DNA of 36,982 bases, from positions 1-36,982 of the forward strand of contig CAZBIH010000002.1 of assembly GCA_964492015.1 (NCBI GenBank), written 5' to 3'. Each line of letters begins with the position of its first letter. Within the stretch, counting starts at the first letter, position 1. This document shows, in pieces, positions 281 to 36,766 of the stretch. Under the pieces are notes generated by a model. That model saw only the letters and a program-made list of their open reading frames with translations, did not search any database and had not been told where the DNA came from. The position numbers and the translations under genes were made by a program. The stretch is from an uncultured Planctomycetia bacterium (GTDB lineage Bacteria; Omnitrophota; Gorgyraeia; 2-02-FULL-51-18).

Positions 281-3200
281 TTACGAAGACTGCAACAACA
301 TCCTCGAGGAGGTAAAATAAGCGCGAATAGCCAGCGCAATGCTTGCGGATAAAAGGGCCGGCAGGGCAAAACGGCGCACGGCCGCCGCGTTCCCCTGGAT
401 GAAGCTGACAAATTCTTGGCGGCTCAACCTGTCACCGTAGAAACTACGGTAATATTCATAAGCCTGATCTGCGGAGGTGACCGAAAGATCCCGGCCAATC
501 CCGCCCACACGGCGTACCAGCCCCAACGCGGGCCCGAATTCAAACACGGCCGCGATCTTGGACCGCGGATCCGACTGCAGATCCTCGAGTGTAATAAAAA
601 GATCCGGCACACTCCCGCTTTCCCAGGTTTTGTGGCTCCTCAAGAAGTCCGACTTCATCGACAAATGTGTCCGCGGCGCGCCAAGATCAGGGAATTCCTG
701 CCCCTCTTCCAAGAATACGGCGTGAGCCCCCGAAAGGTCTTTGTTCATGACCCCGAGCGCTTTCCTGCGGATCCCCTCATCCCCCTCAAGCTTCACATAA
801 AGAGAAGCCATCGGCGCTCCGGCAAATCCCGCCAGCAAACTCTTAAGAGCATTGGTCTCAAGCTCCGGCACCGCGTTTTGAAAACCGTTCAGATGGAGCA
901 CAACGTTCACAGTCATAGCCTGAGACGCTTCCAATTTTTGGTCGTTGGCCTTCGCGCGTATTTCTTTCATCATAAATACAATGTCCGCCAGATCAGGCGC
1001 TGATACTTGGCTTGCACTCTCATTAACAACACGGTCTTGAACGGGAACCAGTCGGGCACGCACCTGCCGGTAGACCGCGGGTCCTTTATAAACCGTGATT
1101 TCATCACCATTTTTTTTCTTAAAACGCAAAATTACCGGCGAGTCATAAGATTTGAAGCTCATGGCAATTTCAGCGCGATCAGGAATCCCCTGTTCTTTTT
1201 CTACGCCTGAGACAAAAGCGTCAAACTTAACGTCTAGGTTAGAAGCCAACCTCGCCCCCCGAGGTTCCCTTTCCGCGAGATTCTCGACAATGAACTCAGA
1301 TGCCAGCTTCTGCCTCTGGTCTTCCGGGAATTTCTCCGAGTTGTCCCACACCACCTTGATCTCTCCGGCTATTTCGCCTATAAAACCTTCGGGGAAACCT
1401 TGAGGATATTTGGCTGCGATCGTCTCCAATCCCCTGAATGCACTCGGGGTATAAGGCCCTGCCGTTTTCGCGATGAAAAGCAAGAGATCCTCCCCAACCG
1501 CATCATGGGCTTCCTTCATTCGTTTGGCAGATCCGGCGGACAGATAAAGTTTTCCGGGACTTTTGGCCAAATGGCCCAGCGCTTTAAAAACATCGTTGGA
1601 CCCAGCGCGCTCCATCAATTCAGCTAGGAAGCCCGCTTCCAAATACGGCGAGTTAAGATCGATCAGACGGATCTGCAATACAACCGGCTCAAGATATTTA
1701 TCGGACAAGAATTCATTGCCCGCAAACATCGCTTTCATGAATCGAGAGTCAAGATATTGGCTATAACTTGGATTTCGTTTCATAAGAGCCATGAAACCGA
1801 TCAAACCCCGAAGAAAAGGGATAGAGAAGATCCTCGGCTCTTTATCCGTCTCGGGCGTCATCAGGATCTCATACAAAAATTCGGGATCCGCAAGAAAAGC
1901 GTACTCCGGCCGATCCGGCAGAGCATCCAGATACTCATAAAACAGATCCAGGATGGATGACAACAATCCTTGCATGCCAGGATCCACGGCGGGAAGGACA
2001 GGGCGAAATTTTAGAAAGATCTCTCCAGCCAACGGATGAAGAAAGCGGTTTTTAGTCTCATAATGATCGGTGCCGGAGCCAAGGAAATCCCGAATTTTGC
2101 CCTCCTCCGCTTCCCCGAGATATTGCCCCACAAAATAGGCGATCTTATCCAGGGAATTTTTAAGCGGAGGGAGATACCCATGCTGAGCATCCTGCTTGTA
2201 TCCCCAAAGAATAGAAAAAAGAATGGATGCTTCATCTTTAAGCGACTTTTTTTGCTCCAAATACTTAAAAATTTTATGAATTAAGTAAACCGCTTCATTC
2301 GTACGTCTCTCATAGAAGTACTTCCGCAAATAAGGCCGAACATCCGGCTGGTCGGCAAAAGGCAAAAGATCTCTAAAAGCTTCAAGATGCTCTTTCTGAG
2401 ATTTCTCAGTCCATGGCGTTCTTAGCACCGTCAGGTCTTTGTGAATCTGATCCTGGTTAAAATCCTCTGCTAACCTAGCCCCCTTCTCCGAAGCTTTCTT
2501 AACCAGGTCTTGAACGTATTTCACAATGAGCTCCTGCTTCTCATCCAGGGAGTGTCCATCCTCCACATGATGGATCACCCGCATTTCAACCGCGATGTTG
2601 CCAAGTTCGGCTTCGGAAAATTGATTTTCGCGCGCTTTAGTCAGATCGATCAAGGCGTCCAATACTTCCTCGGTATGAGGTCCGGCTAATTTGGCTACAT
2701 GCATCAAAAGATCAGTTCCAACGGCATCGCGAACCTCCGCCACAGCGGCTTTTGAAAGATAGATCACTAGTTCTGGAAATCTATACAATGAGTTCAGCGC
2801 CGCCGAGTTTGGGCCAACGCTTTCTAAAAATTCTGCGATCCTCTCGGGATCATCAAAATACGAGGCCTGATCGGCATGGCGTGTCGAATTAATCGCGTTC
2901 GGCAACGCCATCACGTTATAAATTGGCAGACTTGAATTGATCGCCAGAATGAACCTTCTATTAAGATAACGCGGATCAAAAACACCTCTTCTTACTGAAC
3001 CGATAAACTGCTCTAAATTTCTGAGAAAAAAGAACGACATGCCAAAATTCCTGTCCTCCGGCGACTCCTCCAAAAGCTGTTTCAAATAATCCTCGTCGAT
3101 AAGGAATTGGTATTTGGGCTGAATTTCGCCTGACTTGTCAAAAAGCAGTTCTTCTTGCTGTGAGATAGCGCCTAGATAGTCATAAAGCCCGTCTAAAAAT

Positions 3201-6200
3201 TTTAGTTCATGATCCGGTGGAAGCGCTGTGCGAATCTTTAGAAAAATTTTAACAGCGGCTTTATATAAAGGTTTTTTTAGCGTGTCCATATAGTGATGAA
3301 GCGCGCTGTTGTCCCAAAGGGATTCCAGTTCCAAAAACCCAAAAAATTTAGAAAGCTCCTCTTCTGTCGCGTTTTTCAGAAAGGGCTTCAAAATACGGGA
3401 TACCCGTCCATAGTGCTCTTTCATCAACAACATAAAGGATCCGGGAACCATAGCGATTTTCCTGTACCTGTACAAGTGATGAAGAAGGAACGGGTGACGG
3501 TTGTTATCCTGTTCAGCGCTCAATAAAAATCTTAAGAACAGTGTGTATTTTTTGTTGAGGTTGTATTGTAGAGAATACGTAGTAAGCACCTTTTGCACGT
3601 CTTTTCTATCCAGAACAGGCATCAGCCTGGCAATGTGAGTCTCCTCGAGACCGGCTGGCAATTTTGACTTTGCCAGAATTTGCTTACTCTCCTCGATCTG
3701 GGTTTCGCTCAAGCGAGCGCCCTGCCCTATTTTTCCATTTTCAATTTTCCATTTTCCATTGCCTAGCCTTGCCCCCGCCGTAAACTCGCTCATCCAATCC
3801 ACAATTATTTCCCAGCGTTTGGGATTCGCAATTTGTTCATCCTTCAACCTGTTCGAGAGGGCTTTGAGCGCCACGGCAAAATCGCCGATGACAGAAGGAG
3901 GAAATCCTGAATGATAACGCATCGTATATCGAGTCAATATTCTGTACGCTGTCGATACACGATCGCCGGTGATATTTAAAATATAACTTAGAAAATCTGT
4001 CTCCACGATTGGCCGGACCTCCTCCAGTGCCAAAGGAGTCAAGTAAGGCCCAAGATTCTGTAAAGAAGACATCACAAGTGGATCCGTATGGGTTTTGACG
4101 ATCAACTTTGCCAAAAAGTCAGGATCAACCAGTAAGGGATTGAGATTGGATTTTTGTACCTCTTTGATCGTCCTCATCACCAGCGCCACTTTCGAGGATT
4201 GCGTCCTACGAATATCTCCTTTGATTGTCCCAAGCGCCAGGAGAAAACGCGGATGAATATAACCCCGACCGATCTTCTTCAAACGCATCTCTTCCACAAG
4301 GATTCTCAGATTTCTCAAAGCCTCTCCGGAAAAATCCTCCGCGTCATAGCCTTGAGAGCGGACAACCATCTCGACAAGCACCGGATTCAAGAGCATATCT
4401 TTTTCTTGTTGGGTCAATGCCATCCGGATCTTTGTAGCTTTGCCTTGCGACAAAACAGCCTGGACGTATTGGCTTATATCCTCGAGCGCGACAGCCTCAT
4501 CCTCTTGCCTTATAAAAGGTTTGATTCTTAAAAATAATTCTCTGATCTTTTGATCCGCCTCGTCTTGCGACAGTCTCGCCCCCGCCGTTTCATCCGACAA
4601 TCCCAGCATCTCCTCCAGCCCCAGTTCCGGCAAGCGGCCGCGTTTGGCCTTGAGGAGCGCAATCTTGAGAATGATGCCCATGAGTTCTTCGGTGGTGGGC
4701 TCGTGATCCAAGTTGACGGACTTGGTAAATTGGCTCACCCCCGGAGTATTAATTCCGATGAAAACAATATCGATCCCTTTTTCATTGGCTTCCGCCAGAG
4801 ATTCAGGGCTGGCCGAGCCTTCGCCATCCGTCAGGATAATTTCGAGTTTATTTTTCTGCGTCGCCTCTTTTTCGTGCTTGCGGATAGCGCCATTCACCGC
4901 GGCCTGGATGTCCGTGCCTTCGCTGGCAAGACGCGCGCGGATATTACCGAGGGCTTGCTCGATCTTTTGTTTGTTGCGGGAGTCTTGAAATTTTAAAAAT
5001 TGATAAAAGCGGTTACCCAACCCGCCCAGAGAAAACTCGACACCTTTATTTCGCACCGCCGAATAAAAGAAAAGCGAGCTGTAAATGCGCACCATGTCCA
5101 TAAATACCTGATCCAGCCCGCCGCCGGTGCTCCCGCTGATATCGATCGTCAGGCCGATGCTGACCGACGCCAGGCCCTCGACGACATGCGTCACCTTGAA
5201 TGCCTCCGGGTCCCATTCGATGACGCGGAGCATATCCGGCTCGTCGCCTTCTTCGGCGTAGCTGTACATCACTTTGGGCGAGCCGACAAAGGCGGTGAGA
5301 AATTTATTGATGAGTCCCTGGCCGACGGATTCGAGCTCTTCGAGATCCCCATGAACATCGGTGGACGCATCTTCGGCTTTCTCCTCATCATCGTCTTTTT
5401 TATCTTCACTTCCCGATTGACCGGTCCCTATTCCTGTCTGATCAGCCTGAGTGAGAGGCCGTAATGGATTTTTTGTGCCTTTGGGCCTCTTTTTTCCTGT
5501 AATTCGTATGCTGCCTTTTCGAGGCCTTATGCTCCTTTTTAAAATGCTCTTCTTCTTGTCATGTTCGGGCGTGTTAATTTTTGTGGAAGAACCGCCATCG
5601 ACGTAGTCCACAATTTCAATCTCGAGATCGGAAGGACCATCCACACCTCTTAGCATTTCAGTCATATAAGCCTCGCCGCCACCTCCGGTATTGACAATTA
5701 CTTTTTTGCGATAAACCCCTTTTTTCGCCGTATAGAGAAATTTTTGCCTATATTCATAAATAATTGCGGCAATTTTTTGGATCTGTGCGTTGTTCATAGA
5801 GAGAATTTCGTCCACGATTTTTTGGATTCTGTCGTTTTCATAATTATCAGTAATAAGCTCCTTTTCTTCTGTCACGGGAACTTTTTCTTGATACCGCTTC
5901 GCAAGCAAAAGGCCGTTTAGAATACCTTTGGCGGCTTGAGTATATTCGCCTTTTTCGTCCTTATTTTTAAAAATCAGCTTTGCCAATTCATGATTAAGAT
6001 AGGCTTTGGGATCCTCCGAAAAAATAAGTGGGAAAAGCATTGAATTAAGTTCCCTGTTGGCCGGTATTTCGCGGTCACTTTTTCTTGAACGTATTTGGTC
6101 AATCATGTGACCCAATTCGTGATACGCCATCCAACTAATGAATTCTTTCCGCGAAACTCCTGGGGGAGTCTGACTTGCCGCGCTTTCAAACACCACCGCG

Positions 6201-9200
6201 TATTCTCCCTCAAAATAGGCGCTGGCGTCTTTTGAGGGGAATTCATCCCCAGGCACAACATTGGCCTGAACAAAACTATCTTTAAATTTACTCGGATCCA
6301 ACCCCAATTTTTTAAATTGATCTTCACCAAAGGAGAAAATTTGAGATATTTTCTCCGCAAGAACGATGGTATAGGCGACTTCCCCAGCCTGGGAGACCTT
6401 GACAGCCATCGGTAAGAATAGATGCACCCCATGCCGCACAAATATGCTTCGCATCTTAAACATGGCATCTCTTAGTTTATCTTCATGCACAACGGACCGG
6501 TTATAAAGCGTTGTAAAATGTACGAGTGCTTTTTCAAGATCAGGGTCCAATTTCCTCGCGGCATTGTAAACAGATTGAATGAGAGAATCTCCCCCTTGCC
6601 CATCTGCCATGACGTGCACAAAAGGCGCGAGAATTTGTCTGGCGAAGACAAGCGTAGCCTCGGGCGACGCGGCATTAAAACGATCAGCCTCTTTCTGAAT
6701 CTCGGGGATATCATAATGAATATTGACTTCGTCTGACTTCAACTCCGGAGGCCTACTGTCTTCCGGAACTTCATCTAAATCATTTAGTTCCTTTTCATAA
6801 GCATCAATATCATTGAGTCTTTTCAAAATCGTCTCAATCGAATCGCGGTGAAGCACCTCTTCCGAACCCCAGAGATCGAGCGTCCGCGGCTCCACGGGCA
6901 CATATTGCTCGCCACGGGTGACAGCCAACGGTTGAACGACAGCGGCTCTTTCTAACTCAAGAGCCTTACGGCTTTTATCAATTCCTCGGCGGTGATATTC
7001 ATAAAGGATGTCGTTTAAAGCCCAGTTCTCATAATCCATCGGGTTGGGCGGCCATAACTTGTCAGCATAGGAAACAATTTCACGGGCAAATTCTTCGCGG
7101 CCTGAGTATTTCTCCATGGGGTTGAACGTCAGCACGACCATGATCTCGTCATCCACCTCAACCTCAAAACTTTCACCGGCGTACTCCACGCTAAAACGCC
7201 TTTCTCCGCGAAAAAGCGGCATGAGCGCGTAGATCAATTCCGGCGAGGCGTTGGCTTCGTCGATCAAGAGGATCGAGCGCGACGATGTTTCCTGCCCGGG
7301 CACAAGAATGCGCTTCCAATCGGCCTCACCGGCTTTGCGGACTTTTCCGGTGCGCGCTAAAAATTCCTTGATGCCCAATTCAAACTTTCCTTCTTTTACT
7401 TTTAGGCCCGCCGTGATATCGGAAACCTTCAGATCTTCATAAGCGTTGAGCGTGTACAAAGGCACACCCCAAATACGGCTTAAATTTCGTATACCCGTGG
7501 TCTTGGCGGCGCCTGTCTCGCCGTTTTCCATCACGACGCGAGGCAAAGACACACGGCCTTTAGGATCACGCACCCGGATCCAGGACTGCAAGAGGCTTGC
7601 GAACATCCGAGCGATCTCTTCGGTGTAGCGAAGATACTCCGGTGTTGAGACTTCCGACGGGGGCAGAGCGCGCTCCTGGTTGAAAGCGTCCCGCGCCAGC
7701 GGCAGACCGCCGATAGAGTCGATGAGTTCCATTTCGATCGTGAGAGTTTCCCCGTCTTTTTTGGCGTACAGGCCTTCCGAAAGCCGGCGGCCCTTCTCAA
7801 GCGCCTCAGCGGTCATAGGATAGACAGCGCCCGGAGTGCGGATCGCGAACATCGTTTGAGCCTCGTCGTTGGTAGCGGTTTTTTCAATACGAATGCCGTT
7901 GGCCAACCCCACACTGTCGCCCTCGGCTTTTAAGCCCGACAGATCGAGAGTGACTACACGTTTGCCGGTTTGCACAAGCGCCAGGCGCTCGTGGATCGCG
8001 GCTATGGTTTCCTGATAAAAATATTTGACCTGGGTGGGCTTGGCTTTTTTCTTAAAAACCAATTCGGCTAAAAGATGATCCCGGATAATTTCCTTTTCCA
8101 CTTTCAAGCGGTCGGACTTCTCAAGCGCCTGCAGATACACCATCGCCGCGGCTTTGAGCACGTAATACAGCGGATTGGGATTTAAGGGTTTAAAATCAGC
8201 CTGTTTGTCCGTCTGAATAATTTCAGCAAGCTTGAACACTTCTCTCACGGTGAAACCATAACGGAGGCCGAATCGCTGAGTTTTGTCGTATTCGCTCACT
8301 TTTTTAGCCAGCTCCAGGATCCACTCGGCTTCACTCTCATCCACAAGCGGATAACGGTTCATCAAAAGGGTTTTGACTTCGTCAAAATCCTCAAACGCGT
8401 CGACCCGCACCGGCAGAAAACGGTTGATGAACGCCGAGGAGAATTTGTGCTCCACCGCCGAGGAGATCTGCAAGTTCACCCATTCCGGCAAAATATACTC
8501 GATCGACTCGCCTTTCTCATTCTGCAGGGTCATGCGCCGCGCCTGGAGCATCTCGCTCAAAATAATGTTGAGGATCACTCTCTGTCTTTCGGGGATGGCG
8601 TCCATGAGATTGAAAAAAAGAAGTTTCTGGGCATGGGGTTTACCTTTTTCAGTCCGGTATTCCTCCTCTGTCAGAAAATGCCTCAACATAAATCCAAGCG
8701 TCATCTGAAATTCCTTGGAAGCGGCTTCCTTGGCGACTCCATACTTGTCGAACTCTGACTCAAACTTCATCAAAACGCTCGAAACCAGATGCATCCGCGT
8801 CATCTGGGGATGTGACCACAGCGTGTGAAACTCACGGCCTGAAAGATAAGCGAATTTGCGCGCCAAGTCGTACGCATCCGCGCCCTCGGATTCCAGATAG
8901 GCTGTCGGCGCGTGAAGTGAGAGTCCGAAGGCCATCGCGCGAAGCGCGCTATTTTGCGACGGAAGCTCTTCCGGATAAGCGATATCAGTCTCGGAAACAT
9001 TGGTCACGCCTTCCGACTTTTCAAGGAGAATACCCCCGAAATCAATTTGGCCGTTTTTTTGTGAAATTTTTACGGGGCTTCTCCACCATTTCAAATGTTC
9101 TATAAAATCAACCCCAAAAATATCCGTCACCTCCAGCCACATTTTGGGGAATTCCATCCGGTCCAGACGGGAAAGATAGGCGGTCATGATCCCCGCGAAC

Positions 9201-12200
9201 AGAGCACGCTCTACTCCTTGAGCGTTATCCCCGCGCTTGACCGCCTGCATCACCGACTCGGTGACAAGGATCAGCTGGCGGGGGCTCAGCTCCGTGCGAT
9301 GCGGATGAACCTCGTTGAAACGCAGGTGAAGTTTGGCGATCCTGTCTTTCAATCCTGAATTCAACTTTTCCCCTTGCAGGGTGTAATCAATGATACGTAT
9401 CGCGTCCGCGTGTGAAAGGGCGTTGTCCGACCAGATCTTGTGCGAAAGCGTATCCGCGCCATAAGGGATCTGCTCGCGGCCGCTGATGGACCCGGCGGGA
9501 TTCTGAGTGATGCCGATATGGAAAGAGGGGTGCCGTTTTACGATCTGTCCGTGAAGCCCCGGATGAAAAGTCCCTAGATCGAATTGGTCCAGACGGCTTA
9601 AGTGGGTCAAAAACGAGATCACTTCTTGTGAATTAGCGCCGATCGCGCCCTCATCCAGAAGAAATAGGCCTCCCTCGCTGTATGCCTTTAAGAAATCCAG
9701 CGTAAAGTGCCCGTCAGCATCCTTGTCCGAGGTCAAAATAAATTTGTCGCCGCGTTTGGACAGGCGTCCTAAAAAAGTCCCTAGATCAATTTCACCGTAC
9801 ATCAGCTGGCGATAGTAGGGTTCTCCCAGACGCTTGGCGAGCTCACCAAAAGATACGGTTTTGCCGCCGCCCGGATATCCCTCGATCAAAATAGGCCGCC
9901 CGTGGCGCCAGGCGATGATCATCGCGGCGAGCTGCCGTACCAGAGTTTCGGTCGGCGCCAGAAATAATTTTTTATCGGGGATCTCCGTGTAGCGCGTATC
10001 GATGGAAATGCCGTCCACGACCAGCCGCACAACTCCGGAGACATTATTTTTGGCGTAATGAATTTGCCACGACGGATCCGCCATCGGCGCCGGGAGAATA
10101 CTCAAGCCTTTCTGGTATTCAGGCCTCAATCCGATGCCCAGGGTGTAATAAGCCACTTTATGAACGAGCGCCTCTGTTTCTGGGTTCCAATCCCGCGAAA
10201 AAACTTTTTGAGTGTTTAGTTCTGCCAAAAAGGTATCCAGATCTTTTCGGCCGAGGCGGTTGTGCTCATATTCATAGTTTTTGGCCTCTTTCTTGTAAGC
10301 TTCAAATACTTCCAGCGCGATAGCAATTAAGGGAAGTGTGAACGCGGACGGAGTCTGCGACAACTTGGCTTGAAAATACCGCTTGATCCAGGCTTCATCC
10401 AAAACATCACCGACATTGACGCTGATAAAACGGTCGATCTCAGCGGCGGAGAGCTGAGTCTTTTCGACGGCAGAGCCGGTGGCGATAAATTTAAGATTGG
10501 ACGGCGCCTGCGTATAGAACCAGCGCGCGAACTCAAGGCGTGTCGTCGGGTCCAGAAGAGCCGTTTCGGCATCATCCCCTAGAAGGCGCCCAGTTGATTT
10601 CTGGTATTCACGAGCCAAGGCTGTGAGAAATCCGGAATCTTTTTTATCCAGAATTTTTTCTATCAATGCCGAAGCGATGCCGCCGTCAATGCTTTCGGCC
10701 AGGCTTTCAAGCCGGCCTGTCTGGAAAAATTCATTCAAGAGCGGCGCCGATTGGGGATTAAGCCGCGTGTAATTGTGCAACACAACAGTGTGAGTTTTGT
10801 CCGAGGACCGCAGTCTCGCCTCCTCGATCAACTCCGGGATCATTCCAAGGCCGTGCTCGAATTGCGGCGACAGACGGTCCAGAGCCTCCCACCCTTGAGG
10901 CCGTTGCTTTTCCTGACTCTTACGCGGAGGAATAAAACCGCTGACGAATTGCCTGCGGCGATGAAAATAACTGAGCGGCACATCATGAATGACCGCCTGG
11001 GCATCTTCGCGGCTGATCAGGGAATCCAGTTTTGAGAGATCGCTTGTCGCGTTGGAGAAAACAAGAACGGGTTTCTTTTTCTTAAAAGCCCTGGAGAACG
11101 CCTGATCGGCATTGATATTCCGGGCTTCGATCCCCCCCTCTTTCAAGATCGCGTGCACCAGATTCCTGGCGCGGGCCTTGTCCTCGATCTCCTTCCACAT
11201 AAAAACATAAACTCCCTCCACCGCTTTCGCGAAAGCCGCGGGCGCGTCATCGCCGTGAGTAAGATAATATTTGAAATCTTCCAGCACGCGGATCAACTCG
11301 CGGCGGGTAATGTCTTGAGGGGAAGTAAAAAGACGGTTTTTTATTTTAGCTTTGGCTAATTGCAAGTGAAGTTTAGTAAGTATCGGCGCGAAACGCTTGC
11401 TCTGGGCGTCCAGGTCTTGTTCTTTAAAAAATCCATGAATGATCTCGGGCAGTTCGGCGGGGTCGGTGGCCATGTAATAGCGGGGAATATGCGCGGCGAT
11501 GCGGGGCGGAGTGGCTTGGCGGCCGGTAAATCCGTCGGGGTTTACCGTATACAGCCACAAATTATTCCGGTGGATCGCGGTTGAGCGGATCCCTTTGTTT
11601 TCAGGATCCAGAGGCGCAAATTCCGGCAGATACTTGAGGTTCCGGCCGGCTGTTTCGGGGAAATTCCAATAATAAAGCGAGTTGTTCTGGTTGGTGTTCA
11701 TTTCATTGTACAAAAATAAATGGCCGCCTTCTTCCAACCGCTTCAAGTACTGTGCCTCATAGAGACGGTAGCGGCCGTCCTGCGTCACACGGATGTGGCC
11801 GCGGAAATCCGCCAAGTCCGTGTCTTCGTTGATCGTATTTTCCTCGAGGCCCAAGCCCACCATGCGGGAAAAAACACGGGCAAGCTCGGTCTTGCCTTCA
11901 CCGGAGGGACCCTCGATCTGAGCCATCTGAGTACCGTATTTGAGATCACGGACAAGTTGAGAAAAAACACGTGCTTCCAGATCCGACACAACAAATCCGT
12001 ACCGGCCACGGATCAGCTCCCGGGGAGACTTTTCAGGCGAAGCTTCTACGGCTCGTTTGAAATCCTCTGACATCTTGATCCCCACGCCATCAAAAAATAT
12101 CAGATCCCCCGCGATCTCGATCTGAGGCGTGCCGGGATTTTTTCCTTTCAAAAATTCAAGCGTTTTTCTGTCTTCGGCGTTCCTCAACCGCAACCAGAGA

Positions 12201-15200
12201 TAGTGATAGGCCTCTTGCCGGATGATCTTGGATTCTCCCGTGGAATACTCCTTGTCGCGGCCCAAGACCCTGCGGGCGATCTGGATCAAGTCCATGAAAT
12301 CAAGGCCTGGGTCTTCTTTGAATTTTATCCTCGTGAGGGAATCATACAGGTCCCACAGATATCTCTCGGTGTCCTCGGAGATACCCACTCTCAGGTGAAG
12401 ATAGCCGGCGATTTCGGAATAATTTTTAAATTTATCGGAGGATGTTGAAACGCTAACCGGCAAATCATTTTCCTGATCGTCATCGCCCTTGGATGCGGCT
12501 GATCTTTTATCTATTTTAGATTTCGCTCCGGATTGAACGTAATCCGAGATCATTTTTGAGGTAGTTTCTCCGATAAGCATTCTTTTGTTAAGGACCTCGG
12601 AAAGTTTTTCATAGGGCACCTGGCTTATTTGGTCCGCGGTCAAGGTTGGTTGCATTTCAAGGATGCTGGCTTCAATTACCTTTTTAATGGAGCGAGCCAG
12701 GATCAGCATATGCTCAGTGTCCATGCCCTGCATCCGCAGCCGACGCACGACAGCCAAAGTTTCCTGCTGATAAAGCCCTGCCTTTTTAGAGACATAAGAG
12801 GCGATACGCTCGATCGTCTCTTCCTCGATCGACGGGATCCCCACATACTGCACCAGCGGCCGGTTCATGAAAGAGTCATCCTGGATCGTGTGATCGCGGT
12901 GCATCGTGAACACAAACTGCAAATTGGGCGGCAGCACCACCGTCTCTCCGCGGTCAGGCACTTCTACTCTCTTTTCCCACAACACCGGATTGAGCTGGAC
13001 ACGCACGCGGCCCGGGAGCGCTTCCACGTTGTCCATGATGAACGTGTAGCGATTCTCGGGGTCCGCGGCGGCCGCATGGGCCATCTTCACCAATAGACCG
13101 TCCTGCCATTCCATCAGATCTTTCCACCGGTCAGGCTCCTTTAGATAAGTCGCGATCGCCATTTTCAGAACGCGGTCTTTCTGAAGCTCCGGATCAGTTG
13201 ACCAGGCTTGGTAATATTCTTCTACCTCACTATCTTCTAAAGCGAGGATCACTTTAAGCGCTTCGCGGATCCCGTCGACATTGACGAGCCTGGCATTGAT
13301 CAGGCGATGATTCACTTCCTGCGCTTCCATCACCGGCTTGGGCATGTACATTCCAAAGAGTTCTCGTCGCCTTGAAAATCCGCTGGCTGAAAGCCGCACA
13401 GTTTTTCCATCCTGTTTATCGATACGCTCAAGCACAGTTTCAACCACGGGAGAATTCTCAGAGTCCACCATAAGAAGTAGCGGCCTTGACACCTGCGCGG
13501 CACGCTCGATCATCGCTTCGATCGAGACCTCTAGGGGTACTTCTTCTCCTGCGGGGGAACGATCCAAGTGCTCATAGTCTCCATACGCGATGATCTGCTC
13601 GATGCGACGATTCAGATCGCCGCGCAAGGAAACTGAATGCATCAGCGCTTTACCGAACAGTGCCCGATACTCCGGAGACTGAAACATATCTGAAAGGACC
13701 TTTTCAAATTCTTTGCGGGCCTCCGGTGTCGCGATCACACGGCCGTAAATATTGAACGCGGTCAAAATAAAGAGCTCGAGTACATTCTGGAATCCTTCCT
13801 GACGCAGATAATATTGGCTAAAATCCACGTTGAAGCGCACAAGCTCTCGAAACGTGACCGGATGATCTCCGCCGACAGGATAGCGCTTGACCAGATCCAG
13901 CATCTTGCGATTTAGATCAATGCTCAGCCCAATAACCTCTTCCTGCTCGGAGCGAGTGAGCGTCAGGCGCTTGCCGGTAAAATATTCGGCGACATAGTGC
14001 TCCACTAGCTCCGCATACGGAGAATCCGGGGCCCCGCCTTTTAAGATCTCAAAAAATGAGGCGAAGAAAAGCCCGCGAGCAGCGGGCCCGGCTTCAAGCT
14101 TCATATTCAAATACAAATAAGCCGCGAATTCTTCCTGCATGAAGTTGTCCTTGGTCACCAATTTCTTAAGCTCCGCCAGATTCTGCGTCGGAAGTTTCTT
14201 GCGTATCGCGTCAGGAATAAAACTCAAAAGCGCCTGCTCATACGTGAGCGTGATCCCATGCGCCGCTAAAAATTTGATCACAGAATCCAACGGGGAATCG
14301 GAAGCGAGACGAGCTCCCTCCCAAGCTTTTTTAGCCTCGCCAGCCAGCCATTCTTCGGTTCTTTCATAGATCTCTTTGTCTTTAAATCGATCATGGATCA
14401 ACACCATAGCTTCTTTCAATTCCTGGACTACACGCCATGTCAGTTTCCCGGCGCGGCTCATCGCGATCGCGTATTCAAGATAAGACTGAATGGGTGTGAT
14501 AATTCCACCCAGAGATTTCACTCTCTCCGGGTCCGTGTTATTTTCGATGAGAAACAAAAGTTCCTTGTCCAAAGCATAGGACGGCAACTCGCCTTTTTTG
14601 ACCGAGCGCGACATCGTGAGCATCACTCCGAGTTCTCGTGATGCAAAATGATTGAATCGCGCGTACATCGCGCTCAAAAAATTATTCTCCAAATACGGCG
14701 CTTCGAGCTTTTCTTTTTGTACAGTCTCGTACAACTGCGTCAGGTAAGATAGAAGCTGTCCATAAGGAGCGGCTTCCTTAAGAACTGCTCTCGTCCGACT
14801 CGCCACTTCACCCAGAAGCTGCCTCAAGCCCTCAGGATACACTTCAAATTGCGAGGCAATCTCATCGGGTGAAGCTTGCACAAGGTCCTTCTCAAACCAA
14901 TCCCGAACAATCTGGATAAAACCAAGACGCGTATCCATCAGTCGCGAATGCGGGGTCTGATTCTCGGTGGCCAGCAAAAATTCGTTCACCAACGGAAAGA
15001 TTCCCGGATGATGAACGGCTTCGGCCAGGAGAGCTTCGATAAAAACAGAGTAGCCTTTTTCATAAAAATGGTTGATCGAGGCGTAACCGACGTCCAAATA
15101 TTTTATCAATGCGGCCGCGATCTCGGGCTCTCTCCATCCAGAAAGAAGAGCCAGAGCCGCATTTTGCCTGATCACAAAAATTTCATCGGCAGGGGTCACT

Positions 15201-18200
15201 CTACCATTGTCGGCAAGTTCCTTAAGAACGACCAACGCGAGCTCCCTGTCCATGGACCGCTTGGGATGAACCTTCAAAAACTCGACAACCTCTTTACGCA
15301 AGAAAAGCGAAGAATGTTCCAAATACTTGACTGCAAATTTTTCATGGCCCGCCACCACATAACCCATCGGGTATTGGCCGCTCTTCAAATAAAAAACAAA
15401 CCTCGCCTCGGGAAGAACCCCGGAATCTTTTTGGAGAACAAACCCGGAAACCAGCTTTTCTGCCAATGGCAGGGAAGAGACTGAAAAAGGCCTCTCATCT
15501 ATTGAAGCGTTCGCAGCGGCCAGGTATAATTCGGAAGCAAATTTTGCGGCGCCATCCACTTTGACTGCCTCGATCACCTGACGGTCAAGCATCAAGAAAT
15601 AAAACCGGGCCTCAGGATCGTGGCGCTGACTCAAGATCTCTTTTGCCGCCATACTCTCATCACGGTCTTTCAGCTCAGCCATGGTTTTCTTAAATAACTC
15701 CAAAGGCGGCATCCTCCAAAGCTCCCTATTTTGGAGATACCCGATCACCCCGCGATAAGACGACACAAACGGCGTTCCCAGCATCTGTTTCCACCAACGG
15801 AAAAAAAACTTCACCTTCCACCACCACGAAATTTTCACAGGCTCTTGATCTCCTCTATCCTCTTCTCTCTCTCCTCTATCCTGACTTAATCTCGCCCCCT
15901 TCGGATACGCCAATTCATGAAAATACTCCACCGTCCACGAAAAACGCTTTTCCGCGGGAACATGAGCGGAGAGAACATGAAGCTCTTCCACGAGTCCCAG
16001 GATCCGGTTTTCGTTGAGTAAGCCATCCGCTTCCAGAAAAACAATATAAGCGCGAAAATGATTATAAATATCCTTGAGTCCGCTTTTTACTTTGTCGGGC
16101 TTGAGAAAAATCAGGCCCATCAGGGTATTTTCGCGGATCATTTGCATAATTCTTGGATCGACCACATAAGCCGGTGTCTGCTCCAGCTTCACTTCCTGGA
16201 TCAGGCTGTGGCTGAACTCAAAGTTTTTGATCCAATTCGTCACTTCATTTATTTCGTCAAGCGTCACTTCCGCGCGGCGCTTGGGATCCCTGAAATACGC
16301 GTCTAAAAAATCTCGAACAAATTGATCGGAGCCATGCTGTCTCAAGATCTCCACAAAATGCATCGCCCGAACCAGAGCCTCTTCGATCCGGAAAGTGCCC
16401 TTGGCAGCCAGTGCCTGCTGTTCGATAAAAAAAGCAATCATCACATCTTTTAATTCCGGAGAATAATATTTAAAGTATTCCTGGATCTGTCCGGCTTGGG
16501 CAGCGATAAAAAGCTTGCTCGCATTTTTAAACCCAGCCCACACCTGGCTGTCTTTGGCAATAGGGATGTCCAAGGTAAAGTATTGGGATTTGTACAGGAA
16601 TAACATAAAAAGAGGCATGAGACCCGTGTCTTCAGGTAGACGTTTGCCCACACGAATCACAAAATCCTTAAGAAGCTGGACACCCGTTATATCCATATTC
16701 CCAATGAAAGGCGCCTGTGTCTCCACAAATTCACGCAAGATCTCTAAACTGTCTTTCTCGGAACTATCCGCAAATCTGAGAGCAGCCTCAACTCTCAAAA
16801 TATCAGATACCTCGGTTTTTTTCATCGCCAGGATCTTTTGCGCAGTGGTCTTATCCATTCGCTCCATCAGATACGCAAACACGACTTCGCTATGATAACC
16901 ATCGGACTTGATGTAGCGCAAAGCCAGATCACCCGCATTAGGAATCCTGTCCGACCTGTCATAATCCTTCTGCATCACAAAATAGGCAAATTTCACCCCA
17001 TCTCCGATTGTTTTGGGCCGTTTTTTGATCACGCGGCCCATCACAGACATTGCTCCATTAAGGATTTTTCTGGAAGGAATAGGTTTTTGAGACAGAAGAG
17101 ACCATGCCAGACGCTCTATTTTTGGGATACGAGCGGCTCTGCGATAGCCCCCGGCTAAAATATCCCGGTAAAAAACGGCGGCCGGCCCTTCCCTCAGATC
17201 GAGCTCCATCCTCAAGGCGATCACGATCGCTTTTTCTTGATCTTCTTTGTTGGACAACGCAATATGCTCCGCCAAATAACGCGTGGACTGCGTCCGAAGC
17301 TTACCACTCTCCACCAAAAAAACCGCCGGCTTAAAATCCAACCGGTAAAAATCGATCAGCCCGTGCTTGGACCCAAACGCGACCGGCAGGAGCCTCCACG
17401 CCCACAGGGTCTTCTCCCAACGGCTCATCGGATAAAAATCCACCTCGCTTTTTCCATTTTCAATTTTCAATTTTCCATCCGTTATATCTTTTTGATTTTC
17501 TCTTCCCTCTAACCTCTCTCCTCTATCCCGACTTAATCTCGCCCCCGCCCTCTCATCCAAATATTTTTTCAAAAACTCCAACGCTTTCAGATTGCGATAT
17601 TCGATCGAAGGACGTGGGGTTCTTTGTTTAAGCACAGAGTGAAGTACGGTGAACTGCTCCAAAAGATCGAGTATGAGCAGTTCATTCACCTGATCGGAAT
17701 GATGAGCTCCAAAATTTGCGAGAGCTTCAAATGCCTCATCCGCATGCCCGCCGGTGAATCCGATCACTTTTTCCAAAAAGCGGGTGCCTCGTATGCCTGG
17801 ATACCGGGAATCCGGAAACACATAAGCGTCAAGGCTCGACAGAAACCCGAAAGTGTGTGCTGTCGTCAGAGGCGCCTGATTCCAGATCCGCTTTAAAAAT
17901 CCATACCCAAAGACAGGTGCTCGCAAAACAACGGAGTGAATCTGGGCATGCGACCCGAAATAGCCGCTCAAATCTTTTTTGACACGCTTATGAAACCAAT
18001 AAACCAGGGCTTGGGCCTGTGATCTTGATATTTTGGCTTTTTGTGTGGCAGCCCCCATTTCATAACCAACTTCCGAATCGGTAAGACCACCGACACGGAT
18101 CGCCATCGAGATCATATCCAATGCCCGGGAATAAGCGGGAACATCGGGATTGTTCTTCTTGCCCGAAACCGCCCCCTTCTGCCGCGTCAGTTTGAGGAAT

Positions 18201-21200
18201 GCCTTGAGCGACTGGGGCTTTTCAAGAAGATCTTTTTTACGGTCGAGCCACAGCGTCATCGCGGCCGGGCCTGGATCTTTGAGGATCTTTTTAAGATACG
18301 AAGCTGAGCCTGGAAGAATAAATTCCATCCTGAAGATCAGCGGCAGATACACCACCAGGAAATGCGTTCCCAGTACCTGCACTTCCGGCTCCATACGTTG
18401 GTTGACGCGATGCCACTCCCGGCGCAGAGCCCAAATAGCCTCGGCGGATCTGCGGACATCCTCAGCGCTTCGATCCCATCCGTCATCGGGCAATTGCAGT
18501 ACCTCGAGAACATAGGTGAGGTTCTGGTTGGTTGGTCCGACACTTTTACCCCATTGGACAAAAGCCTGCCAAACCACTTCTTCTTTAGTGCCATGGATCC
18601 TCTTCAAGGCCCAAAGCGACTGGGCTAAGTGGATTTTGTCAGTCATAAATGAACTTAGCTCTTGTAGGTCTTTCCATCTCCAGGCAGCCTCGGCCGGTGT
18701 CCAACCCAGAAGATGCGTGACCGCGTCGTGTTGAGGATTTTGGGGATCAAAATCCTGTCCTTGAATTCCTTCAAGAAGTCTCTGGGCGTAGGGTTGGGCC
18801 GCACCATGCGCCAGAGCGAGGGCCATTTTGTTCCACATACGTCCTTTATTTCTTATGCCTGAAAATATGCCCAGAGCCGGAAGACCAAAGCTCTCGACGA
18901 TCTTCGCAATCTCGTCATATTCCACGGGACTTACATGAAGGCGTGTCCGGCGTGGATCCCGGAGATGATCCAGCACCCGGACAAAAAATGGAACGGATCG
19001 AAGCTGTTGAATGTCGGTAAAATACCGGACCGCCGCCCGGCGAATGGTGGTATCGGGGTCTGTCCACACAACTCTCCTCAAGCGGGACGCTGTGCCGGAA
19101 TAGGTTTTTCCCGTTTTTCCGAGCGCTCGGATAATTGCTTCGCGGTACCGTGCGTCTCCCAATTTTCCAGGTTTAAGCCATTCATCAACGATCGAAACAA
19201 GGATTGGCGCGGCGTCCTTGGCTTGGTCGCCAAACTCCGCCAGGATCTCGGCGAAAATCTGCCGGTTCGGATTGGTTTTATCCGCCAAGTGATGGAGAAG
19301 ATGAGGAATCGCCTCGGGGCCGATCTTAACCAGCGCGTCGCGGGATTCCCGATAAGGATTGCTTCCTTGAGTAGTAGTAAAGCTGATGTCTTTCCTTCTT
19401 ACAACATTACAGAGTTCCCAAATGGCCTCTTGGGCAGCGGGTCCGATATTGCCCAATTCCATCGCCGCCGCGACCCGTTTTTCCCCATTAGGATCATTCA
19501 GTTGCACAATGAGCTGTCGAACATGTTCAGGACTGGAGTCTGCCAACCTCGCCCCTCGACTTTTTTCTAAAATAAACTCCACTATCAGGGCCTGAATACG
19601 CTTGTGAGCCAAGCCTTCCTTTTTAAAAGTTTTTTCCAGTAGAGTTAAATCCTCATTCAATGCAGCAATTTCATACTCACGAACAGGATGGTCCTTGGAA
19701 ATTTTCACCAACGCCTGAAAAGCCTGGTCGGTAAGTGTTCCGGAAAGGTCTAAAACTTTTTCCAAAAAGCGGGTGTCCTTGATCTCGCGAATACGGGTAT
19801 TCACTAACGCATAATCACCGAGTGATAAAAGATAGCCATAAATTTCATTTTTTTTCTTGCTGGACGGACCCTGAGAAGCTTCGATTTTTTTGAGAAAATT
19901 AGTACTGATCCAACCATAGGGCTCTTTGCCAGATACAACCAGGCGGCGATATAAATAATTCAGCCCATGCAAGGTCTCGCCAAATCCTATTAACGATCCC
20001 GAGCGGTAGACCGTCCTAACCATGTCAGGATCAAGAAGAGTTTTCTGTAATTTTTCAATTGGCGCCCTTCCAAATCGCCAGTATTTTTCGATGAAGGCTT
20101 CGTCCCTGATTCCGTCTAGATAAACTTCTAACTCCGAAAGTATTCCCGGCCAGCTATAGATGGGTGCCTTTTGGCGCATTCGATCATCTTTGATCAGCGC
20201 CTGAAATATCTCCCAAATAGCCTGTCTGTTTCTGACAGGCGCCACGTGATGCCTAAGCAGGCCGAAGAACCTGGTTTTGGACATCGTCAAGAGATCTTGG
20301 CCTCTTGACGTTTGGATCTCATGCTCACCCCAACTGCCATGTTCCACGGACGGAATCCACCACAAAAGATCTTTGCCCGACGCGTCCAGCTCTGACTCAT
20401 CGGATAAATGACGCATAAAATCCGCTTGGTCAAATCCCGGCAACCAATTATTACGTCTTTCCTCAGATTTATATCCGACCTTGAATCGACGCAGCAAACT
20501 TGCGATCTGTGTTTCTTCTTTCGAAGATCTCAGCGGTTTTAACAGCGCCGCTAAAAATAAATTTTCCACCGCAGATTCATCCCAGGCCAAATAAGTCCTT
20601 AAAACCTGTCTCACACGCAATTGCTTTCTCGCGGGAATCAAAAGTATCGCCGCAGCAGTCGCCCACTCATAGTCATTGTGCTCCATGGTCCGCTGAAGGG
20701 CATTCGCAAGAAAACCCACCTGGTCCCGGCTAAAGTAAGAATTATTAGAAAGCCTAGCCCCCTGCGGCAGCAATCCTTCCTCCAAATATTTCACCACCAT
20801 CCTCTGACGCTCGTCGGGTGTTTTCTCTGATAAATGCCTGGCGCTGCCGTCGATCATGTGGATCTCATCCAAAAGTTTCAGCGCTTTCTGTTCCGTCGCG
20901 CCGTCGGGACTGCTTTCCGCATACACGCCAAGCACCGCCAAAGCTTCTCCCGCATGAGCGCCGGCATACTTCATGATATTTCTCAAGAAACGCGTCCCTC
21001 GGAGATTGGGGTAAATCGAATTTTCAAATACCCACCGGTCCAAGAACGGGAGATTTTCAAAAGCCTTGTCCGCCGTGAGGGGGGATTGCATCACGATCCG
21101 GGTTAAAAACAGTGGATGAAGCACTGGCGAGTTTTGGCGCAGCCGAAGTACCAGTTCATTAATCGATTCCCTGAGGTAGAAATACACATGATCTTTGCCG

Positions 21201-36688: not shown

Positions 36689-36766
36689 TGGTCGGGATGC
36701 AGGGATTTGAACCCTGGACCTCCTGGTCCCGAACCAGGCGCGCTAGCCAAGCTGCGCTACATCCCG
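36689..36766 (-). tRNA. tRNA-Pro (anticodon CGG), CCA encoded
   Basis: Reverse complement reads CGGGATGTAGCGCAGCTTGGCTAGCGCGCCTGGTTCGGGACCAGGAGGTCCAGGGTTCAAATCCCTGCATCCCGACCA. It has acceptor CGGGATG/CATCCCG, D arm GCGC/GCGC, anticodon stem CCTGG/CCAGG with loop TTCGGGA, and T arm CAGGG-TTCAAAT-CCCTG. Length 78 nt. Confidence 0.93.

Follow-up and report, generated by a model that had tools for sequence, protein, structure and literature searches.

A conserved cassette of six AAA_5-type units, a HExxH domain and a vWA domain in Omnitrophota giant proteins

The giant open reading frame and its conserved cassette

The window analyzed here is the whole stretch of 36,982 nucleotides that opens contig CAZBIH010000002.1 of an uncultured bacterium assigned to the Omnitrophota (assembly GCA_964492015.1), and it is nearly filled by one minus-strand open reading frame (ORF; 281..36280) of 11,999 amino acids (aa), whose frame is unbroken over 36 kb. 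Within the encoded protein, aa 7327-10571 had been singled out in a preliminary description, made from the sequence alone, as a midasin- or dynein-like motor, and this segment, hereafter the cassette, is the subject of this report. Its limits as given by BLASTP homology are 4559..14332 (aa 7317-10574; this and all other features below lie on the minus strand). Indeed, five Omnitrophota proteins (2,488-5,055 aa, one of them truncated) matched the window at 35-48% identity, and these matches spanned precisely aa ~7317 to ~10574, with the flanks remaining without a match. Self-comparison revealed neither internal repeats in the cassette interior nor any similarity to the flanks, which vary within the family and consist of HEAT-rich repeats in the window protein and of β-propellers in other members. 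The cassette is a self-contained, conserved block with unrelated flanks, in line with the earlier proposal that this core works as one mechanical unit.

To define the family, we ran an exhaustive profile search with an alignment of the third to fifth AAA units (D3-D5) over 1.84 billion representative proteins, which returned 80 proteins at E<1e-30. The order of the cassette was then tested with a separate hidden Markov model (HMM) for each part, run on the family representatives. Approximately 70 bacterial representatives share the order N (N-terminal helical region), D1, lid, D2, lid, D3, lid, D4, lid, D5, lid, D6, HExxH, vWA (von Willebrand factor A domain), and distant members keep it even where as many as 2,500 aa are inserted. 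The representatives stem from NCBI, JGI, ENA and Logan assemblies and are mostly Omnitrophota metagenome-assembled genomes (MAGs); the named carriers comprise Omnitrophota, one Elusimicrobia MAG (‘Ca. Liberimonas magnetica’) and one Deltaproteobacteria MAG, and the existing annotation of the named members reads only ‘AAA family ATPase’ or ‘hypothetical protein’. Given that the order D1-D6, HExxH, vWA is kept in ~70 independent proteins, the assembly concatenation that the preliminary description had considered, or another artefact of this kind, is excluded.

Scanning one genome for each species, we found 13 loci, almost all of which lie in Omnitrophota-type MAGs; there the carrier genes usually have 4,900-5,400 codons and twice occur as tandem or neighboring paralogs. 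On contig CAYJXI010000005.1 two cassette genes of ~4,950 codons adjoin (L001 and L002), and on contig JADGBR010000001.1 (L016) the gene for family member P0004 (5,055 aa) lies 9 kb from that for P0069 (6,162 aa), a protein with WD40 propellers in which D4 and D5 are set apart by an insertion of 2,500 aa. The P0004 gene also adjoins a gene for a 3,650-aa ABC1-kinase protein.

A search of NCBIfam found no family for the cassette. PADLOC returned only a 21.6-bit match to ‘mad8’, so that a known defense system is unsupported. Our literature search found no account of this family or of bacterial midasin-like or six-AAA proteins, absence there being no proof of absence, and papers on Omnitrophota giant proteins list AAA_5 only among the frequent domains.

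Six AAA units and the predicted ring

The preliminary description had read the cassette as six AAA_5-like domains in one chain, alternately switched off and on, a layout with which Pfam, profile comparisons (hhalign) and the fold search described below all agree. AAA_5 scored above its curated Pfam cut-off on D1, D2 and D6. We counted motif conservation over 73 bacterial family representatives; the denominators below are the sequences aligned for each unit.

The even-numbered units carry the nucleotide-binding motifs. D2 with its lid (11129..11998; aa 8095-8384; AAA_5 at 27.0 bits) has the Walker A motif GPSGEGKT (11888-11911; aa 8124-8131), an N-E pair at the Walker B position (11702-11707; N8192/E8193) and a sensor-1 residue at N8247. 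Across the family, Walker A is kept in 56/57 members, the catalytic Glu in 55/57 and the sensor-1 Asn in 54/57, and the position of the Walker B Asp is occupied by Ser (28/57) or by Asn (25/57), as in the window protein. D4 with its lid (9101..9958; aa 8775-9060) is fully canonical, comprising GYPGGGKT (9857-9880; aa 8801-8808), the Walker B pair DE (9650-9655; D8876/E8877) and sensor-1 N8927 followed by ‘GR’; its Walker A Lys is present in all 57 aligned sequences, and both the DE pair and the sensor-1 Asn in 62/62. Against Pfam this unit gave weak matches only. D6 (6881..7603; aa 9560-9800; AAA_5 at 31.5 bits) has GETGAAKT (7499-7522; aa 9587-9594), DE (7256-7261; D9674/E9675) and sensor-1 N9720, with family-wide conservation of the Walker A Lys in 59/59, of the DE pair in 58/59 and of the sensor-1 Asn in 54/59 members. 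The three P-loops and the two canonical Walker B boxes (9650-9655 and 7256-7261) listed in the preliminary description were all recovered, the box of D2 reading NE.

The odd-numbered units are degenerate. They are preceded by an N-terminal helical region (13529..14293; aa 7330-7584) with a lid-like ‘TFRELVRFN’ motif, which is conserved in 6/6 aligned sequences and whose HMM always directly precedes D1. D1 itself (12821..13528; aa 7585-7820) has no P-loop and reads D-N at the Walker B position, and it matches AAA_5 at 23.0 bits (cut-off 22). With alignments of close homologs, hhalign matched it to midasin AAA1 at 96-98% probability over the C-terminal half of the core and the lid, and the lid in the following lid-and-spacer region (11999..12820; aa 7821-8094) aligns to the midasin AAA1 lid. 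This lid contains an insertion of ~130 aa (12431-12823; aa 7820-7950), with a low-complexity stretch rich in Ser, Asp and Lys, that is found only in the window protein and P0005. The most degenerate unit is D3 with its lid (10091..11128; aa 8385-8730), which lacks both P-loop and Walker B. It has no Pfam match, and its family-wide profile gave no direct alignment to midasin; with family-wide alignments, however, it matched D1 and D5 with a probability of 98% each over the full length. D5 with its lid (8081..8968; aa 9105-9400) reads ‘EGADA’ where GxxGKT would be expected. It aligned to midasin AAA5 over the full length at 90-97%, P-loop position included, ‘EGADA’ falling exactly over ‘GVGKT’ and ‘SAFINRF’ over ‘KSFVNRF’, and it is followed by a match of 24-31 bits to AAA_lid_7, the midasin lid family of Pfam. 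With family-wide profiles (22-59 sequences), D1 and D5 matched most midasin units at 89-97% over the full length. A spacer (7604..8080; aa 9401-9559), into which P0004 has an insertion of ~400 aa, separates D5 from D6.

The central part of the cassette, D3-D5 (aa 8385-9400), was modeled with AlphaFold from a five-sequence alignment, and all three units of the model show a β-α-β core followed by a helical lid. In D4, a helix-2 β-hairpin and a pre-sensor-1 hairpin, both characteristic of the MoxR/AAA_5 clade, are visible (strands 456-465 and 515-531 as assigned by DSSP). When this model was used for a fold search in the PDB, the best 39 matches were all dynein motor domains, with alignments of ~670-1,370 columns, mostly 900-1,300, which amounts to three consecutive AAA domains; an entry covering dynein AAA2-AAA4 matched at E 9e-9, and the single-unit NorQ first appeared at rank 40. 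By profile alignments and dynein fold matches alike, D1, D3 and D5 are degenerate AAA+ units and not unrelated folds, as had been suspected from their residual landmarks.

The two kinds of units are complementary in what they conserve. Walker A, the catalytic Glu and the sensor-1 Asn are conserved only in D2, D4 and D6; D1, D3 and D5 have neither Walker A nor the sensor-1 Asn, with the Walker B position being D-N in D1 and absent from D3 and D5. Conversely, a [DN]-R-[FPW] motif at the end of helix α4, which we take from AAA+ topology to be the ‘xDRF’ position of MoxR-type ATPases and hence the arginine-finger column, is invariant only in D1 (R7807, 12860-12862; 49/49), D3 (R8617, 10430-10432; 27/27) and D5 (R9287, 8420-8422, within ‘FINRF’; 63/63). 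The same column holds His or Asn in D2 and mostly Lys in D4 and D6; the window protein has His in D2 and Lys in both D4 and D6. The hhalign matrix likewise groups the odd units into one similarity class and the even units into another. In one-chain AAA+ rings of the dynein type, it is the next unit (i+1) whose finger completes the nucleotide site of a given unit (i). Read in this way, the complementary conservation of fingers and nucleotide sites predicts three composite ATP sites, D2/D3, D4/D5 and D6/D1, the last of which requires that the ring be closed; we therefore infer a closed ring.

The C-terminal part of the cassette and the sequence around it

D6 is followed by a domain (5681..6733; aa 9850-10200) that contains HELGH (6107-6121; aa 10054-10058) and E10077 in ‘ELNS’ (6050-6052), which lies 19 residues past the second His and is a candidate for the third zinc ligand. 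Of 30 family sequences, 28 keep the first His and the Glu of the motif, 29 the second His and 29 the downstream Glu, and in P0004 the HExxH motif and the downstream Glu were both lost together. The combined pattern satisfies the motif of gluzincin-type zinc metallopeptidases, and the domain is probably zinc-peptidase-like. In P0002 the whole ~350-aa position is instead occupied by a Transglut_core domain (Pfam, 29.7 bits) with readable Cys, His and Asp motifs; Pfam found no such domain in the window protein. The HExxH domain also occurs outside the cassette: an alignment-based homolog search with the HExxH and vWA segment had as its sole match P0025 (L014/L015, gene 8001-11510), a 1,169-aa Omnitrophota protein in which the HExxH domain (34% identity) stands alone beside hydrophobic segments and a C-terminal DUF58, a known vWA-like partner of MoxR ATPases. 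No MoxR gene lies near it.

The cassette closes with a vWA domain (4601..5323; aa 10320-10560; 39 bits against Pfam VWA, E 1.2e-9), whose metal-ion-dependent adhesion site (MIDAS) is intact, with D10380-x-S-x-S in DISGS (5129-5143; aa 10380-10384), T10456, and D10485 in TDG (4823-4831; aa 10484-10486). Across the family the MIDAS Asp is kept in 37/38 members, the two Ser in 36/38 and 37/38, and T-D-G in 36-37/38, which upholds the vWA-MIDAS call of the preliminary description; HELGH, DISGS and TDG were also found where it had placed them. A search of the PDB with the single sequence of the vWA domain gave a weak TRAP match only. The description had further put an acidic linker before this domain. 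The stretch, K/R-rich first and then D/E-rich, is real (5324..5569; about aa 10238-10320), but it is a low-complexity tether of only ~80 aa and of mixed charge (18 K/R and 17 D/E in 83 residues), conserved among homologs in neither length nor sequence. Likewise, the vWA domain, described as C-terminal, ends the cassette but not the protein, of which 1,425 residues follow.

Outside the cassette, Pfam recognizes only HEAT repeats in the giant protein. The ~7,300 aa on the N-terminal side are made up of large internal repeats, at most 71-83% identical over 130-200 aa, with copies found by self-comparison at aa 5529-6270 (17471-19696) and aa 4000-4730 (22091-24283) and further copies at aa 2019-2770, 2800-3610 and 800-1000. 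The last repeat, aa 7192-7326, which resembles aa 1421-1552, stops exactly at the start of the cassette. In the C-terminal flank, aa 10853-11683 (1232-3724) contain an internal duplication (10853-11192 versus 11266-11600, 26-31% identity) without a Pfam match. Genes for tRNA-Val (64-140) and tRNA-Pro (36689-36766) lie at the two ends of the giant ORF on the same strand. The GC skew of the plus strand is negative in almost every 2-kb window and its cumulative value declines steadily to -3.5, as expected because one long minus-strand gene dominates the composition.

The ORF starts with a TTG codon, and there is no in-frame Met among the first 80 residues. Its beginning reads (TTG)-KTVSLVLVIFYFIQDIAFA, followed past a cleavage-like point by TSE, and the first 23 residues (36212-36280) resemble a signal peptide, with a basic residue, a hydrophobic core and AFA/T. 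This is the one clear hydrophobic segment of the ORF; a weaker one lies at the extreme C-terminus. A similar segment, consisting of a basic residue, a hydrophobic core and a small-x-small end, is present in 23 of the 38 family members with complete N-termini, and signal-like N-termini were seen in P0001, P0027, P0031, P0038, P0048, P0061, P0063, P0069 and P0082. In the window protein, Cys occupies just 7 of the 11,999 positions (aa 304, 311, 441, 1861, 2132, 4092 and 5624), none of them in the cassette; Cys is also scarce in P0001 (0.0%) and P0026 (0.02%), and other homologs have 0.3-1%.

Proposed mechanism, related systems and alternative explanations

Taken together, we propose that three pairs of AAA_5-type units, each of one degenerate and one active unit, would form a pseudo-hexameric ring in one chain, in which D2, D4 and D6 would bind and hydrolyze ATP and D1, D3 and D5 would each donate an arginine finger to the site of the preceding unit. 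The vWA domain on its flexible charged tether would most likely grip an acidic residue of a protein ligand through its MIDAS and dock on the ring or its pore, as in NorQ-NorD. Docking of a vWA finger in the pore has been shown for NorQ-NorD and proposed for Rea1 (PMC13036017). ATP-driven movements of the ring would then pull on or remodel the ligand held by the MIDAS. Given that the slot before the vWA domain is held by peptidase-like domains, either HExxH or a transglutaminase-like Cys-peptidase, remodeling is probably coupled to cleavage in most members, and the variable flanks would recruit substrates or anchor the machine. A role in ATP-dependent degradation has been proposed for operons that combine MoxR, vWA and transglutaminase genes (PMC3495828), and we propose by analogy that the peptidase slot mirrors the logic of such MoxR-vWA-peptidase operons, here within one polypeptide. 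Judging from its sequence features, we give a probability of roughly 60% to the cassette being an ATP-driven, MIDAS-mediated protein remodeler with three composite sites and, optionally, a peptidase, built by fusion into giant scaffold proteins.

Several observations weigh against this proposal. As the Walker B Asp of D2 gives way to Asn or Ser throughout the family, this unit may bind ATP yet not hydrolyze it, or may be a slow or regulatory site. The D3-D5 model is of moderate confidence only (predicted local distance difference test, pLDDT, 62; predicted template modeling score, pTM, 0.47). The HExxH domain has no sequence match in Pfam, NCBIfam or the PDB, and although its model is better (pLDDT 80, pTM 0.73), a fold search with it in the PDB gave no significant match (best E 0.24), the HExxH enzymes anthrax lethal factor and angiotensin-converting enzyme appearing only at E>0.5 and a probability of ≤0.14; since neither a fold nor a family match is available, peptidase activity is argued from the logic of the motif. 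Moreover, the gene neighborhoods of P0025, P0004 and P0003 contain no conserved partner genes that could hint at a substrate, and no adjacent MoxR gene. Finally, with its signal-like N-terminus, the positive-inside rule would put most of the protein outside the cytoplasm, where an ATPase would lack ATP, at odds with the strictly conserved ATPase residues; an anchor that leaves the protein facing the cytoplasm, or action in another cell, are options that could reconcile the two.

The name ‘midasin/dynein-like’ given in the preliminary description suits the cassette in that sequence searches of solved structures point first to midasin, and fold searches to dynein motor domains. Among solved structures, midasin ranked first with the D3-D5 profile (6e-29) and with the D4 profile (9e-62). 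The D4 profile, built from 15 diverse D4 units, scored 47.3 bits over its full length on Rea1 AAA5, compared with 34.0 bits on NorQ (P-loop half only), 32.8 on CobS, 30.1 on CbbQ, 28.4 on MoxR and ≤29 on dynein. This margin of 13 bits over NorQ, which is modest and is measured against solved single-chain relatives only, leaves the ancestry unsettled. With the whole cassette as a single sequence, a PDB search gave a weak NorQ match only, and a tblastn search with D4 for single-unit MoxR sequences on plasmids gave one weak match.

Midasin (Rea1/Mdn1) is a eukaryotic AAA+ protein of ribosome maturation that works on pre-60S particles by way of UBL-domain ligands and whose AAA2-AAA5 are catalytically competent. 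In midasin as in the cassette, six AAA_5-type units and their α-helical lids follow one another in a single chain, then come a charged flexible segment and a closing vWA domain with MIDAS, in typical carriers of ~5,000 aa; the two also share ‘QNPxxxxGR’ after sensor-1, the ‘FxNRF’ (F[IV]NRF) motif and the AAA_lid_7 lid family. The midasin layout claimed earlier therefore stands for these parts, but not as orthology. Indeed, a unit-by-unit orthology was rejected, as a cassette HMM run on midasins gave no matches in matching order, every midasin unit matched D4 best and the preferences of the bacterial units were inconsistent in a 6x6 hhalign comparison. The cassette has three P-loops, whereas the fungal midasins we retrieved have five or six GxxxxGK[ST] motifs, some deviating in AAA1, and its dead and live units alternate strictly. 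Between D6 and its vWA domain lie only ~580 aa, made up of the HExxH domain of ~350 aa and the 83-aa tether, with neither a helical linker of ~1,700 aa nor a long D/E region as in midasin, and the HExxH or transglutaminase slot is an addition. Furthermore, the large variable extension of its carriers is N-terminal, and these are bacterial proteins, often with a signal-like N-terminus. The fungal midasins themselves (P0006-P0023) have units that form odd (AAA1, 3, 5) and even (AAA2, 4, 6) classes, which hints at an origin by triplication of a pair, but no consistent mapping links them to the bacterial classes.

Dynein, Rea1 and RNF213 (mysterin) are the only six-AAA single chains named in a study which also reports that RNF213 has only two active AAA units (PMC7311170). 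Dynein resembles the cassette in its six AAA units, several of them dead, and in the fold matches to the D3-D5 model; its direct sequence matches are weak (≤29 bits). Dynein carries a coiled-coil stalk with a microtubule-binding domain between AAA4 and AAA5, and an N-terminal linker across its ring. In the cassette, 332 aa separate the P-loop positions of D4 and D5, without a long insertion or a stalk between them, and there is no evidence of a microtubule-binding coiled coil or a dynein-type linker; the cassette has a vWA domain, which dynein lacks, and a strict alternation of dead and live units. RNF213 likewise has six AAA units per chain, several of them dead, but no E3 module was seen in the cassette.

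The bacterial MoxR-vWA systems (NorQ/NorD, CbbQ/CbbO, RavA/ViaA and MoxR-DUF58/vWA-YebA with its transglutaminase-like domain, TGL) belong to the same AAA+ clade 7, with AAA_5 and a helix-2 insert. They too have an obligatory vWA/MIDAS partner and an association with peptidases (TGL in P0002, HExxH plus DUF58 in P0025), and docking of a vWA finger in the pore is a plausible common mechanism (PMC13036017, PMC3495828). They differ in that their chains carry one AAA unit each and assemble into homo-hexamers, and in that vWA and peptidase domains are separate proteins or simple fusions, whereas the cassette combines six diverged units, a peptidase and a vWA domain in one polypeptide, at fixed positions and with divided labor. 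The chelatase-type systems BchI/BchD and CobS/CobT are also similar, with an active AAA+ subunit and a degenerate AAA unit linked to vWA/MIDAS, and CobS is among the sequence matches; however, they consist of separate subunits in two-tiered complexes, with no in-chain hexamer and no peptidase domain, and insert metals into tetrapyrroles, a function of which the cassette shows no sign. In sum, as far as these comparisons go, the cassette appears to work like a MoxR-vWA system and to look like midasin, and is not a midasin orthologue.

These comparisons allow the alternatives to be weighed. The cassette might have arisen by an independent fusion, in which a MoxR-type pair of an active and a degenerate unit, of the BchI/BchD or NorQ/NorD type, was fused three times, yielding a chaperone or insertion device without proteolysis, in which the HExxH domain would serve as an adaptor, either structural or metal-binding. 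The two similarity classes of the units fit the triplication of a pair, the lack of a unit correspondence with midasin agrees with it, and a degenerate AAA unit, an acidic linker and a vWA domain in succession are the layout of BchD, the D subunit of Mg-chelatase. Moreover, the HExxH domain lacks a protease fold match, and some members do without it or have it in degenerate form. We nevertheless regard this fusion as somewhat improbable: the HExxH residues and the downstream Glu are kept in 28-29 of 30 members and were lost only together, and if no catalysis took place there, it would be difficult to account for the intact transglutaminase-like peptidase that occupies this slot in P0002. A true kinship with midasin, through a six-unit one-chain ancestor common with midasin (and dynein), the cassette being either the bacterial forerunner of midasin or linked to it by an ancient transfer between eukaryotes and bacteria, would imply a Rea1-like pulling of assembly factors off a large complex. 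It draws on the first rank of midasin among solved structures and the lower scores of the single-chain relatives, on the shared ‘QNP-x4-GR’ and ‘F[IV]NRF’ motifs, the AAA_lid_7 matches and the carrier size, and on the odd and even classes of midasin's own units. It appears unlikely to us, given that D1-D6 do not correspond to AAA1-AAA6, that three P-loops stand against six in full-length fungal midasins, that the linker and the long D/E region are missing and a HExxH domain is added, and that the lead over NorQ is small and concerns solved bacterial single-chain relatives only.

It is more doubtful still that the protein is an exported effector, secreted or anchored at the surface, whose ring acts in the cytoplasm of a prey or host cell or does not act as an ATPase. 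Such a role would agree with the signal-like N-terminus of the window ORF and of 23/38 members, with the extreme depletion of Cys and with the surface or predatory roles proposed for Omnitrophota giant proteins (PMC10066038; bioRxiv 2023.11.21.568195), but the strictly conserved catalytic residues argue for the use of ATP, some family members have no signal-like N-terminus at all, and the giant-gene preprint appears to count AAA_5 among intracellular domains. Only a very slim chance is left for the view that there are just three AAA domains with unrelated spacers between them, or that the gene is an artefact of assembly or annotation. D3, with neither a Pfam nor a direct midasin match, could be cited for it; yet D3 matches D1 and D5, which themselves match midasin units over their full length, all three modeled units align to consecutive dynein AAA domains, and the conserved order in independent proteins and the unbroken frame speak against an artefact.

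The ATP-driven remodeler proposed here is of interest beyond the window. Six AAA units in one chain are a layout so far on record from eukaryotic giants only, midasin, dynein and RNF213 among them. Such rings are regarded as eukaryotic inventions that go back to single-unit bacterial MoxR ATPases (PMC3495828, PMC7311170), the in-chain hexamer having arisen early in eukaryotic evolution (PMC3495828). A bacterial in-chain ring combined with a MIDAS makes this account testable, as it would be either a second invention or a relative of the eukaryotic ring. We consider it a long shot that the cassette is the closest prokaryotic relative of the midasin/dynein ring, that is, that a MIDAS-tethered one-chain AAA_5 hexamer exists in bacteria independently of, and possibly before, eukaryotes, with the midasin/dynein ancestor acquired from or shared with it; if this were true, that ancestor would not have been built de novo from single-unit MoxR in early eukaryotes. 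The strict alternation of dead finger donors and live units offers an unusually clean natural experiment on the number of sites that an AAA+ ring requires. For the Omnitrophota, the cassette identifies a conserved, probably enzymatic core in their poorly understood giant proteins, and the export-like signal on such an ATPase raises the question of its purpose.

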